From Nitrospirota bacterium (lineage in GTDB: Bacteria > Nitrospirota > UBA9217): 64,000 nt of DNA. Positions 14,748-18,960 of this stretch are shown here, one piece after another (within the stretch, counting starts at the first letter, position 1; each line of letters begins with the position of its first letter). Location: NCBI GenBank assembly GCA_963790205.1, contig CAWBNQ010000008.1:225021-289020 (forward strand), in the 5' to 3' direction. Both the position numbers and the translations under genes were made by a program. The notes under the pieces are model-generated. The model saw only the letters and a list, made by a program, of their open reading frames with translations, was not told the origin of the DNA and ran no database searches.

Positions 14748-15905
14748 ATGAGTAGTTGTACCAGAAATTACCTTTTTACTTCGGAATCGGTTACCGAGGG
14801 GCATCCTGATAAAATAGCCGACCAGATATCCGACGCGGTCCTCGACGCGCTGCTCACGCAGGACCCCACGAGCCGCGTTGCGTGCGAGACGCTTTTGACA
14901 ACCGGTCTTGCGATAGTAGCGGGAGAGATCACGACGAAGGGATACGTTGAGATTCCCGACATCGTACGCCAGACGATCAAGGACATCGGGTACACCCGCG
15001 CAAAGTACGGGTTCGATTACGAGACCTGCGGCGTCATCACCTCGGTTCACTCACAGTCTCCGGATATTGCCATGGGCGTGGACACCGGCGGGGCCGGCGA
15101 CCAGGGCCTCATGTTCGGCTATGCCTGCGATGAGACCCCCGAACTTATGCCGATGACCATCATGTTGGCGCACAAACTGACCCGGCAGCTGTCCGAAGTG
15201 AGAAAGACGGAAGTGCTTCCCTACCTCAGGCCTGACGGAAAATCCCAGGTCACGATCGAGTACCGGGACGGCAAGCCCTACAAAATCCACACCATCGTCG
15301 TTTCCTCGCAACACAGCCCCGACGTGCACCTCAAGGACCTGCGTGAGGACGTGATCGAGAAGGTTATAAAACCCGTGGTGCCGAAGCACCTTCTTGACGA
15401 AGAAACCATTATTTATCACATCAACCCCACCGGCAGGTTCGTGGTGGGAGGGCCCATGGGAGATACGGGCCTCACCGGACGCAAGATCATCGTGGACACC
15501 TACGGCGGCGTGGGCAGCCACGGGGGGGGATGCTTCTCGGGCAAGGACCCGTCGAAGGTGGACCGCTCGGCTTCCTATATGGCCCGTTACGTTGCAAAAA
15601 ATATCGTAGCGTCAGGCATCGCGTCGGAAGCAGAGGTGCAGCTCGCCTATGCCATCGGTGTTCCTGAACCGGTTTCCATCCATGTAGACGACTTCGGCAC
15701 TGGCAAAGTCGATCACGACAAGCTGGTGAAGATCATCAGAGATAATTTCGACATGACCCCCAAGGGCATCATGACAACCCTCGATCTTCGCAGGCCCATC
15801 TACCGAAAGACCGCGGCCTACGGCCACTTCGGCAGGACCGAACCGGAATTCACCTGGGAGCGGACCGACAAGGCGGCCAAGATTAAAAAGGACGCGGGGC
15901 TCTGA
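14748..15905 (+). CDS. metK: S-adenosylmethionine synthetase
   Basis: [62 protein letters not shown]. Confidence 0.97.
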
Positions 15906-16099
15906 TTTTGAGACGGCAGAGTTCGCGTAAAGCAAACTGTGCCGAACACCATGCTCCTGCCGCACAGCATAGTTGTACGCTCGTTACGAGCTTCGGGCGG
16001 TATTTCCAGAATGCGGATAGTAACAGGCCGTTCCGGCAGGACCGGCCGTCTAGACTGTTCAACTCTCTATATAAAATATCATACGGAGGAGGTAGTAAG

Positions 16100-16693
16100 A
16101 TGATGAAGAACGTTATTTTGTTGTTAGCCGCTTTGATGTTGTGTCTGGTCCCGCTAGCGGTTTTTGCCGCGGGCGCCCACGACGGGCTGGAGTGCACCGG
16201 CTGCCATGCGCTTCATACCGCGAAGGACGGCAAGCTTATCTTTGCCGTGGAAGCGAACAAGAAGGAAATCAATCCCAGGACCAAGCAGCCTTACGGCGGG
16301 GTCACCGCCCTGTGCCTGGGGTGCCATGATACTCCCGAAAAAGGCGGACAGGGAATCAAGCCCATAGACAGCCACACGAGCCATCCGTTCGGACTGACCT
16401 CGGTGAATTCAAAGATCGCCCGCGTTCCGAGCGAATTCATGAGGGACGGCAAGTTCGAATGTACCAGCTGCCATGACCCGCATCCCTCGAACACGAATTA
16501 CAAATATCTCCGGGTCGATACTTCCAATGGTTCGAAGATGGATGTCTTTTGCGCGTCATGTCATCCGATGAAGGCCGATCCGAAATCCGCGGCAAGCGCG
16601 AAAACCACTCTCTTCAACAGCATGGATGAGAACCTGTATAAAGCGTCGGGCTCAGAGGCTCCTGCGGCACCGGCAGCGAAAAAGAAACAATAG
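16100..16693 (+). CDS. Periplasmic tetraheme c-type cytochrome (doubled-CXXCH type)
   Basis: Signal peptide; CTGCH, CLGCH, CTSCH(DPH), CASCH; GGAGGAGG RBS. Confidence 0.85.
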   Translation: MMKNVILLLAALMLCLVPLAVFAAGAHDGLECTGCHALHTAKDGKLIFAVEANKKEINPRTKQPYGGVTALCLGCHDTPEKGGQGIKPIDSHTSHPFGLTSVNSKIARVPSEFMRDGKFECTSCHDPHPSNTNYKYLRVDTSNGSKMDVFCASCHPMKADPKSAASAKTTLFNSMDENLYKASGSEAPAAPAAKKKQ

Positions 16694-16742
16694 TCACCAG
16701 GAATTCGGCAAGGATCGTTTTCTGCGTACATGACAGGAGACA

Positions 16743-16820
16743 GGGCGGACCGAGCCTGAGTTCACCAGGGAAAAGACGGATAAGACAGCAAAGCTCAAGA
16801 AGGAAGCGGGAGTGAAGTAA
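16743..16820 (+). pseudogene. metK 3'-end remnant, copy 2
   Basis: Reads [25 protein letters not shown]; the intact metK ends [24 protein letters not shown]. Confidence 0.8.
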
Positions 16821-16885
16821 TAGCTGATTGCAAAATTTGGATTGTCGCTAGAATCCAGACTATGCCTGAATGGCGTGAAAATTAT

Positions 16886-16912
16886 GTAGGGGCAGCCCTG
16901 TGTGGCTGCCCT
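16886..16912. repeat. REP-like palindrome (GTAG family)
   Basis: GTAGGGGCAGCC-CTGTGT-GGCTGCCCT. Confidence 0.55.
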
Positions 16913-16934
16913 CAATATTGTGTGACTTATACTA

Positions 16935-17012
16935 TTTGGCCGTGAAGAGCCGGAATTCAAGTGGGAAGCCACTGACAAGGCTGCCGCATTGCGCGCAGAA
17001 GCAGGACTGTAA
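16935..17012 (+). pseudogene. metK 3'-end remnant, copy 3 (proteobacterial-type tail)
   Basis: Reads FGREEPEFKWEATDKAAALRAEAGL*. Confidence 0.8.
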
Positions 17013-17022
17013 TTGAAACATC

Positions 17023-17115
17023 AACCTACCCGTCGAGGGGCGCTGCAGCAGTCACCGCAAGGTGGGTCTGTCAGGCTCGATGGGGTGGTTCAACATGCAG
17101 CAACGGCGCCCATTC
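17023..17115 (+). ncRNA. SAH riboswitch
   Basis: CGAGGGGCGCTGCAGC...CAGGCTCG...AACGGCGCCC consensus blocks directly upstream of ahcY. Confidence 0.85.
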
Positions 17116-17137
17116 ATTAACCTGAATGGAGAGCTTT

Positions 17138-18535
17138 ATGTCTACTAAAGACTACGTTATCGCCGACATCAACCTGGCCTCATGGGGCCGCAAGGAAATC
17201 GCCATCGCCGAAACCGAAATGCCCGGCCTGATGGCCATCCGTGCAGAATTCGCCAAGACGCAACCGCTGAAAGGCGCGCGCATCACCGGTTCGCTGCACA
17301 TGACCATCCAGACCGCTGTGCTGATCGAAACGCTGAAGGCGCTCGGTGCGGAAGTGCGCTGGGCCTCGTGCAACATCTTCTCGACCCAGGATCACGCTGC
17401 CGCTGCTATCGCTGCGGGTGGCACGCCGGTGTTCGCGGTCAAGGGCGAATCGCTGACCGATTACTGGGATTACACGCACCGCATCTTCGAATGGGCGGAT
17501 GGCGGCTTGTCCAACATGATTCTGGACGACGGCGGCGACGCCACGCTGCTGCTGCACCTGGGTGCGCGCGCAGAAAAAGATGCATCGCTGATAAGCAAGC
17601 CGACCTCGGAAGAAGAGACCTGTTTGTTCGCTTCGATCAAGGCCAAGCTGGCAACCGACAAGACCTGGTACTCCAAACGTCTCGCCGCGATCAAGGGCGT
17701 GACCGAGGAAACCACCACCGGCGTGCACCGCTTGTACCAAATGCACGAACGCGGTGAACTGAAATTCCCGGCGATCAACGTTAACGACTCCGTCACCAAG
17801 TCCAAGTTCGACAATCTGTACGGCTGCCGCGAATCGCTGGTGGACGGCATCAAACGCGCCACCGACGTGATGATCGCTGGCAAGATCGCGCTGATCTGCG
17901 GTTACGGCGATGTGGGCAAAGGTTCGGCACAAGCCATGCGCGCTCTCTCGGCACAGGTCTGGGTGACCGAGGTTGACCCGATCTGTGCGCTGCAAGCCGC
18001 AATGGAAGGCTTCCGCGTGGTCACCATGGAATACGCTGCCGACAAGGCCGACATTTTCGTGACCTGCACCGGCAACTACCACGTCATCACCCACGACCAC
18101 ATGGCGAAGATGAAGAACCAGGCCATCGTGTGCAACATCGGCCACTTCGATAACGAGATCGACGTCGCCTCGCTGGAAAAATACCAGTGGGAAGAGATCA
18201 AGCCGCAGGTCGACCACATCATCTTCCCGGACGGCAAGCGCATCATCCTGCTGGCCAAGGGACGCTTGGTGAACCTCGGTTGCGCCACCGGCCATCCGTC
18301 CTACGTGATGTCGTCGTCGTTCGCCAACCAGACCCTTGCACAGATCGAACTGTTCACCCGCACCAAGGACTACCCGATCAACGTGTACACCCTGCCCAAG
18401 CATCTGGACGAGAAGGTCGCGCGTTTGCAGCTGACGACGCTGAATGCTCAATTGAGCACCTTGACCGACCAGCAGGCTGCGTACATTGGCGTGCCCAAGC
18501 AAGGTCCGTACAAGTCGGAGCACTACCGCTACTAA
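17138..18535 (+). CDS. ahcY: Adenosylhomocysteinase (long, proteobacterial type)
   Basis: [64 protein letters not shown]-terminal [17 protein letters not shown] before ATG 17138. Confidence 0.97.
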
Positions 18536-18539
18536 GCGG

Positions 18540-18960
18540 GCTGTCGCTTCGCAAGGAGCACTTCCGGGTCATGAAGGACGGCGCCATCCCTTCAACGTTG
18601 AGATTGACCTCGATGCTCTGGACAGGGTGAAAAAGAAGAAGGGGATCATCCGCGACTTCGTTGAAGAATACACCACGCCGAACGGCGGGAAGATCAATGT
18701 TCTTGGAGAGGGCCGGCTCATCAACCTCGCTTCCGCAGAAGGTCATCCTTCGAGCGTGATGGACATGAGCTTTGCCAACCAGGCGCTTTCCGCCGAGTAT
18801 GCTCAAGAACGCAAAGAAGCTCAAGAAGCGGGTGTACGGCGTGCCGCAGAACATCGATGCCGAGATTGCCCGGCTCAAGCTGAACGCCATGGGCATCAAG
18901 ATCGACAAGCTTACTCCCGAACAGAAGAAGTACCTCGCCTCGTGGGGGATGGGAACGTAG
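18540..18960 (+). pseudogene. 3' remnant of a second ahcY of a different subfamily
   Basis: HFRVMKDGAI/FNVEID...GEGRLINLASAEGHPSSVMDMSFANQAL/...IARLKLNAMGIKIDKLTPEQKKYLASWGMGT*, with a deletion and frameshifts. Confidence 0.88.

Follow-up and report, generated by a model that had tools for sequence, protein, structure and literature searches.

In a 64,000-nucleotide stretch of a Nitrospirota genome (lineage UBA9217; GenBank assembly GCA_963790205.1, contig CAWBNQ010000008.1, forward-strand positions 225,021 to 289,020), the resident gene for S-adenosylhomocysteine (SAH) hydrolase, ahcY, survives only as a decayed 3' part behind an intact, foreign ahcY with its own SAH riboswitch. The whole stretch is referred to here as the window, and positions are counted from its first letter. 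Comparison with relatives makes it probable that this riboswitch-ahcY cassette came from Gallionellaceae, entered the family once, just upstream of the resident ahcY, and is now passed between genera through recombination in the genes on either side, with the resident copy decaying. The genome of the window is labelled G000 and other genomes G followed by a number; genera, contigs and scanned loci carry the prefixes g, C and L.

Origin and layout of the ahcY cassette

A Gallionellaceae genome (G276) aligns contiguously at 90% DNA identity over 16935-18537, a span that takes in a copy of the end of metK (tail3), the riboswitch and the long-type ahcY. In Gallionellaceae, metK, riboswitch and ahcY are likewise adjacent, and a genus-level search of 69 genomes found no donor closer than 90%. 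The encoded long AhcY passes TIGR00936 (603 bits, cut-off 497.6), shares 97.6% amino-acid identity with G213 (Gallionellaceae) and is matched in 244 of 251 Gallionellaceae genomes; in 16 genomes from other families of the phylum, no allele exceeds 67%. In trees, the long alleles of the family nest among those of Gallionellaceae, in agreement with the initial annotation, which had proposed a betaproteobacterial source for the intact AhcY (17138-18535). Its codon use falls at the 99.8th percentile of 1984 host open reading frames for Gallionellaceae-likeness, a rank that high expression may inflate, and metK and the neighbouring cytochrome gene are host-like. Riboswitch family RF01057 is found in 17 of 27 family genomes, with no match over the cut-off in any of 123 genomes from the phylum's other families, and the order metK then short-type ahcY recurs in many distant metagenome loci; together these indicate that the transfer ran into Nitrospirota. 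Displacement in place by a betaproteobacterial metK-riboswitch-ahcY segment bringing its own riboswitch therefore stands as first proposed, with the donor narrowed to Gallionellaceae. It was no one-off event: the displacement is family-wide, and the cassette probably reached G000 second-hand via a relative.

The locus runs from metK (ending in tail1) through a four-heme cytochrome c gene, tail2, a spacer with a GTAG-headed hairpin, tail3, the SAH riboswitch, long ahcY and the short-ahcY remnant to an EamA gene:

14748..15905, + strand: resident metK (S-adenosylmethionine synthetase), intact, last 25 codons = tail1; TIGR01034 605 bits; 81-93% amino-acid identity to family MetK, 56-64% to full-length betaproteobacterial MetK
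16100..16693, + strand: small multiheme cytochrome c gene, 4 CXXCH, host-like; PF09699; codon use host-like
16735..16743, + strand: likely ribosome-binding site of the lost resident short-ahcY start, with the putative left joint of the second transfer directly after it; identical 9 nucleotides precede the short ahcY start in G042
16744..16820, + strand: tail2, decayed metK end from a within-family donor; 84/89 nucleotides identical to G073 (genus g17) vs 51/67 to its own tail1
16821..16934, + strand: family-type post-metK spacer with a REP-like (repetitive extragenic palindromic) GTAG-headed hairpin at 16886-16911, ending at the original left junction; 16744-17140 matches G063 at 357/394 nucleotides
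16935..17012, + strand: tail3, metK end of the Gallionellaceae donor; foreign DNA begins at its first base; G276 homology begins exactly at 16935
17029..17118, + strand: SAH riboswitch aptamer; RF01057 58.3 bits
17110..17133, + strand: predicted expression platform, a hairpin overlapping the pseudoknot strand and covering part of the ribosome-binding site; minimum free energy fold
17138..18535, + strand: intact long-type ahcY (SAH hydrolase, ~40-aa insert, C-terminal extension), Gallionellaceae origin; TIGR00936; 97.6% amino-acid identity to G213; tree
18536..18549, + strand: stub of the cassette 3' flank plus deletion joint, common to G050 (g11) and G059 (g19); sequence comparison
18550..18960, + strand: resident short-type ahcY remnant, codons 277-418, frameshifted; nearest G042/G019 (82%); longest decayed remnant in the family
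19077..19955, + strand: EamA/DMT transporter gene, conserved right flank of the locus; PF00892; follows ahcY in family loci of both states

The riboswitch, the long-type ahcY and the decayed 3' part of an ahcY from another subfamily are thus all as initially annotated; the cytochrome c gene (four CXXCH, 16100-16693) between tail1 and tail2 had gone unmentioned. The remnant begins at about 18550 (codon 277 of 418), stops at 18960 and carries deletions of 16 and 2 nucleotides, and the genome holds one intact ahcY. Of 63 relatives, 5 have a close orthologue of the cytochrome gene, which in 4 cases lies at a different locus; a 68% identical copy also follows metK in the distant genome G065 (G065:C208:4564-5136). 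A second, distant metK paralogue (46% identity) lies at G000:C3:952424-953614, with similar copies in 17 other family genomes.

Related long and third-type genes were seen further afield. Desulfuromonadales/Geobacteraceae loci L053, L058, L061 (~4001-5389) and L125 (2998-4083) encode 87-89% identical long AhcY forming a separate clade, with no riboswitch-like leader by eye; the gene before it in L053 and L061 is presumably sahR. In loci L066, L070, L071 and L118 (Planctomycetota, Armatimonadota or unclassified), the long ahcY is preceded, upstream of 4001, by a leader that resembles an SAH riboswitch by eye; the pair may have crossed between phyla in these cases too. A third AhcY type, 66-67% identical to the long one, occurs in family f5 of the same phylum (G028:C26:1350-2630, G037:C15:400041-401321); in G028 it lies near metK and is perhaps another replacement at the same locus.

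Distribution, decay and probable spread across the family

Among 64 family genomes, 41 from 13 genera carry the long gene at the site between metK and the EamA gene, 16 have only the short gene, the neighbour of metK that the initial annotation had expected in relatives, and 7 have neither; three genera are mixed. The calls for G075 and G079 depend on gene starts found at the ends of contigs, and G002 and G019 come without upstream sequence. The 38 carriers with a gene end form a graded series, with an intact short gene in tandem in 4 (from two genera), a remnant of 21-410 nucleotides in 19 (one of them weak), none in 14 and one cut by a contig end. The riboswitch is kept in 35 of 37 carriers and the adjacent tail3 in 10 of 37, across metK-ahcY intervals of 20-1232 nucleotides.

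The cassette likely entered the family once. Of 37 cassette intervals, 12 (from 8 genera) have the same left junction, as against none of 14 short-only intervals. On the right, 10 loci from 5 genera have a flank in common; its likeness to the hairpin that follows ahcY in Gallionellaceae scores higher than all 300 shuffles. One P1 position of the riboswitch is U in 35/35 family copies and C in 29/29 Gallionellaceae copies, mostly with a compensating partner. These shared junctions and the family-private base pair argue for a single entry and speak against chimeric assembly, and family monophyly of the long alleles is not rejected (p-AU 0.35). GTAG-headed hairpins, which we take to be REP elements, mark 27 of 37 cassette intervals vs 1 of 14 short-only ones, and the junction lies 23 nucleotides from the hairpin; about 8 of 12 matches to the pattern are hairpins by eye, making several copies. 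As candidates for a cognate RAYT, seven Y1 matches were found, four of which, tested as partial domains, scored 50-63 bits, below the NF047646 cut-off of 80. In G048, G066, G079 and L315, small repeat elements are inserted in tail3 or in the loop of the ribosome-binding-site hairpin, with the stem intact. G008 has two close metK copies on different contigs (C122, C191).

After entry, the long gene no longer followed its hosts. The rpoB tree recovers the genera except g7, where G065 adds a contaminant fragment (G065:C59:1-1878, nearly identical to that of G001 and likely misbinned). Compared with rpoB distances, and without G065 and G060 (a divergent locus), long-gene distances give rho 0.10 (p 0.12, 27 genomes) and short-gene distances rho 0.77 (p 0.001, 14 genomes). 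Long-gene monophyly was rejected for g11, g9 and g19 (p-AU 2e-11 or less), as was that of the alleles of G000 and its rpoB sister G005; the metK of G059 was left out of the trees (stop). G000 and G048 differ by 19.4% in rpoB and 5.4% in the long gene, and G048 and G045 by 19.1% and 3.8%, whereas G048 and G023 differ by 7.5% and 17.8%. Because host phylogeny is reflected in the short gene and not in the long one, the cassette appears to move between genera, and the tree conflict demonstrates allele exchange among them. Gain of the cassette by spread between genera is likely as well, given at least 11 changes of state when 54 genomes are placed on rpoB, short-only intervals of which none (0/14) keeps riboswitch or junction, and one deletion joint common to G000, G050 and G059 from three genera. 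In G000 itself, the DNA from 16744 to ~18585 is 84-98% like g17, g19, g9 and g11; the DNA upstream of metK, the 3' part of the remnant and the EamA gene are mostly nearest g3, at ~75-87%.

There was no integrase domain within 100 kb on the contig, the nearest lying more than 100 kb away. Seven integrase-domain matches with identical scores on G000 contigs C1, C3, C5, C6 and C14 are likely one multicopy element. Sampled genome words were present at 0.60 and 0.46 in two runs of one peat study and below 0.2 in 18 others; the best run may be the source sample, and we draw neither support nor a habitat claim from it.

Breakpoints, mechanism and rival explanations

As first noted, the last ~25 codons of metK are present three times, in the intact gene (14748-15905), in tail2 (16743/4-16820) and in tail3 (16935-17012), and the translations read as noted then. 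Tail2 matches tail1 at 18/24 residues and tail3 at 16/24, a likeness not due to chance, since the next best of 8.68 million six-frame genome windows reaches only 11. Tail2 averages 19.2/24 amino acids to family tails and 14.3/24 to Gallionellaceae tails; tail3 averages 21.8/24 to Gallionellaceae tails and 16.9/24 to family tails. By these matches tail2 comes from a second, within-family donor, as the metK end of the relative that would have passed the cassette to G000. A host-type second tail is found in 1 of 64 family genomes, G000 only.

Homology starts at codon F361 in tail3 (16935) and at G362 in tail2 (16744, with a 1-nucleotide deletion), 3 nucleotides apart, so that both remnants do begin within one codon. 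From this the initial annotation took the metK 3' end to be a repeated integration point, which the comparison did not establish: neither foreign piece joined into metK, both having joined just before the resident ahcY start; the tail3 start is one ancestral event common to 8 genera; tail2 occurs in 1 of 64 genomes; and the contig has no integrase within 100 kb. Two breakpoints 3 nucleotides apart are suggestive, not proof; with breakpoints uniform over 300-800 nucleotides such a coincidence would have a chance of ~1-2%, a rough, after-the-fact estimate from two events. Between the two phyla, the last block of high DNA identity lies at codons 354-362 and ranks third in the gene; it could account mechanistically for tail3, not clearly for tail2. 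Some sequence preference at the metK breakpoint is a real, if minority, possibility.

We propose three steps. Judging by the shared junctions, a piece running from the last 25 Gallionellaceae metK codons to the hairpin after its ahcY would have joined in just before the short-ahcY ribosome-binding site, leaving both genes in tandem. Deletions, seen as a series of states, would then erode the short gene, tail3 and the spacer, with the riboswitch and long gene kept. Finally, as the tree conflict suggests, the cassette, now flanked left and right by host DNA, would move between genera through crossovers that fall in metK and in either the remnant of the short gene or the EamA gene. In G000 the right crossover likely fell in the last third of the resident short gene; the left end would be an illegitimate joint at the resident start codon, which would have spared the cytochrome gene and left the donor metK end as tail2, with ~1.8 kb in and 0.83 kb out. 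The identity profile fits one homologous and one non-homologous end, and a joint of this kind could also result from a later deletion. The likely vehicle would be natural transformation; comEC and dprA are present in the genome. A bolder version strikes us as doubtful: that a housekeeping cassette, itself not mobile, is now sweeping through 13 genera under selection and is still fed by Gallionellaceae alleles from across the phylum boundary, with donor DNA preferentially cut at the conserved metK YGHF/GR codons and joined before the resident ahcY start, an integrase-free, homology-guided capture in which the nested donor tails would be a transfer log.

Several observations weigh against the proposed history. 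The family clade includes three Gallionellaceae alleles, and not a single coding site (0) tells family from Gallionellaceae alleles; repeated or continued input from Gallionellaceae is possible. A mosaic test found tracts in nearly every allele; being the best of ~90 triplets, and with rate variation and unsampled donors barring assignment to Gallionellaceae, these are not used as proof. The tail2 joint is known from the G000 assembly alone, and G005 has a tail2-like end. The presence of comEC and dprA is no evidence of competence, since 10-11 of 14 control genomes have them as well. Two carriers (G008, G022) have no riboswitch, no promoter-like site was found between metK and ahcY, and covariation inside the family riboswitch alignment is not significant (46-72 of 500 shuffles). 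Short genes of the tandem carriers G048 and G049 differ by 91 synonymous and 16 replacement changes, with no clear relaxation, and so give no sign that the resident is promptly silenced. The family is represented mostly by draft assemblies, and G065 shows bin contamination.

Other histories were considered. One is a single ancient insertion in the family ancestor, after which the two genes would have stood in tandem for a long time, one or the other would have been lost in different lineages, and alleles would later have been replaced through homologous recombination; presence of the cassette would then be inherited rather than spread. It accounts for the single junction pair, the intact tandem state in two genera and clade A alleles that look ameliorated toward host codon use, and tree conflict as such shows allele exchange, not gain. 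We consider it unlikely, and already weakened by the number of state changes on rpoB, by short-only intervals clean of riboswitch and junction, by the deletion joint common to three genera, and by a G000 cassette like that of g17, g19, g9 and g11 between flanks nearest g3. Chimeric assembly of co-occurring Nitrospirota and Gallionellaceae DNA, two groups mostly known from metagenome assemblies, is scarcely credible given the same junctions in separately assembled genomes (including the single-contig G077), the family-private riboswitch pair and the decay series; for the tail2 joint only, it is possible.

The tails themselves invite two further explanations. They may be the recipient's own former tails: each time a metK end with its downstream DNA recombined in through metK, the displaced tail would have stayed behind, truncated where the conserved YGHF block ends. 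The latest insert would then consist of tail1 and the cytochrome gene. This would explain the shared start of the remnants, and the high-identity block that ends there, the patchy cytochrome gene and the tail2-like end and spacer of G005, the rpoB sister, speak for it; yet it requires a chimeric metK with a Gallionellaceae tail, of which there are 0 among the 51 metK ends listed, identity between family members does not drop at codon 362, and metK and cytochrome codon use is host-like, so that we rate it as improbable. Duplicated gene ends are the usual mark of integrative elements, and two breakpoints 3 nucleotides apart could reflect a site-specific recombinase using the YGHF/GR codons as its attachment site, the tails being attR-like scars of minimal integrative cassettes. 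This is very improbable in view of the distance to the nearest integrase domain, a host-type second tail in one genome and no isolated tail away from the locus, a second tail in 0 of 80 metagenome metK loci, and no viral contig with a close copy (best 75% amino-acid identity among the 80 viral loci kept). A metagenome scan with a relative's MetK gave 2 close loci of 80 (L315 with the cassette, L316 with the short gene), too few for breakpoints. An integrative element with its attachment site in metK was accordingly rejected: no integrase lies beside the site and metK-ahcY intervals are this short; no Gallionellaceae-type tail, as would have restored the gene, is among the 51 metK ends; and tail2 and tail1, where near-identical end repeats would be expected, have 51/67 identical nucleotides.

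Regulation, known systems and significance

The transplanted regulator matches RF01057 at 58.3 bits (gathering cut-off 37) and ends 19 nucleotides before the ahcY start. In 30 family copies, an alignment without the 5 carriers in which no hairpin end could be located, 98.3% of cells in P1, P2 and the pseudoknot are paired, and the platform hairpin keeps its 7 pairs in 30/30 copies with a variable loop. Aptamer pairs and the ribosome-binding-site hairpin compete for two bases, and the riboswitch is therefore predicted to be a translational ON switch in which SAH binding would free the ribosome-binding site, the ON logic being what we assume for this class. The long gene is under purifying selection, with 63 synonymous and 9 replacement codon changes between G000 and G048. 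Elsewhere in the window, cobalamin riboswitches lie at 4272-4456 and 10010-10165, the second preceding a gene (10207-12054) that we take to be TonB-dependent receptor-like; at 22150-30095 an AT-rich stretch (GC 0.28-0.33) is followed by a gene cluster, presumably for a NiFe hydrogenase and its maturation.

The two enzymes differ in build. The short resident AhcY is without the 40-aa insert and C-terminal extension (best PDB matches 7o5l, 7r37 and 3x2e), and the long AhcY has both (3d64, 3n58 and 4lvc); by sequence they correspond to the archaeal-type and insert-bearing SAH hydrolases, respectively, in the accessible parts of PMC13406329 and PMC10978960. The former portion describes the C-terminal extension as aiding NAD+ binding and the latter the HxTxE/Q motif as SAH-preferring (PMC13406329; PMC10978960). 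Both enzymes carry that motif, so a switch from SAH to SIH is not predicted. A catalytic or regulatory advantage of the long gene is a hypothesis only.

The known kind of event is in situ xenologous gene displacement, reportedly described by Omelchenko et al. in 2003. The preserved replacement series, the transplanted regulator and the spread across genera are what sets the present case apart. In the available part of PMC2783167, such displacement means that a homologue of distant origin takes over the locus of the resident gene with gene order kept. The present case agrees in that the incoming gene comes from a distant lineage and the resident orthologue is vertical, at the same locus, and lost or decaying; it differs in that intermediates survive (tandem, eroding, complete), the newcomer brings an RNA regulator, and it then moves among 13 genera. 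As in the integrase-free horizontal gene transfer hotspots of PMC5635113, so far as the accessible text goes, a variable interval lies between core genes without mobile-element genes, with tree conflict and a proposed link to transformation; those hotspots concern exchange within species, in contrast to exchange here across genera ~19% apart in rpoB DNA with cargo that replaces a core gene. The putative G000 event resembles homology-facilitated illegitimate recombination (PMC3240628, in the portion available), with one homologous end, one illegitimate joint and insertion coupled to deletion, and in size (~1.8 kb in and 0.83 kb out, compared with 1.7-2.0 kb in and 0.25-1.36 kb out in the clones of that portion). 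That kind of recombination occurs in transformation and is marked by 3-10 bp of microhomology at the joint; the G000 event is read from one genome in which the recipient side of the joint is lost. The riboswitch directly upstream of ahcY is shared with the Beta- and Gammaproteobacteria SAH riboswitch-ahcY regulon (RF01057), as outlined in the available part of PMC4239095, but here it stands in Nitrospirota and without the donor's downstream genes. The literature searched, whose coverage left most subscription journals and supplements outside, held no description of such a case and no paper joining SAH riboswitches and Nitrospirota.

As far as these searches reached, the locus extends SAH riboswitches to Nitrospirota. 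It also cautions against the use of ahcY as a phylogenetic marker in the group. When a distant homologue replaces a core gene in situ, the event is usually deduced from its end states; at this locus the path can be followed, from tandem insertion through graded erosion to spread between genera without a mobile element. An archaeal-type short enzyme, an insert-bearing long one and a transplanted riboswitch together offer a test case for whether catalysis, regulation or neither drives the sweep.

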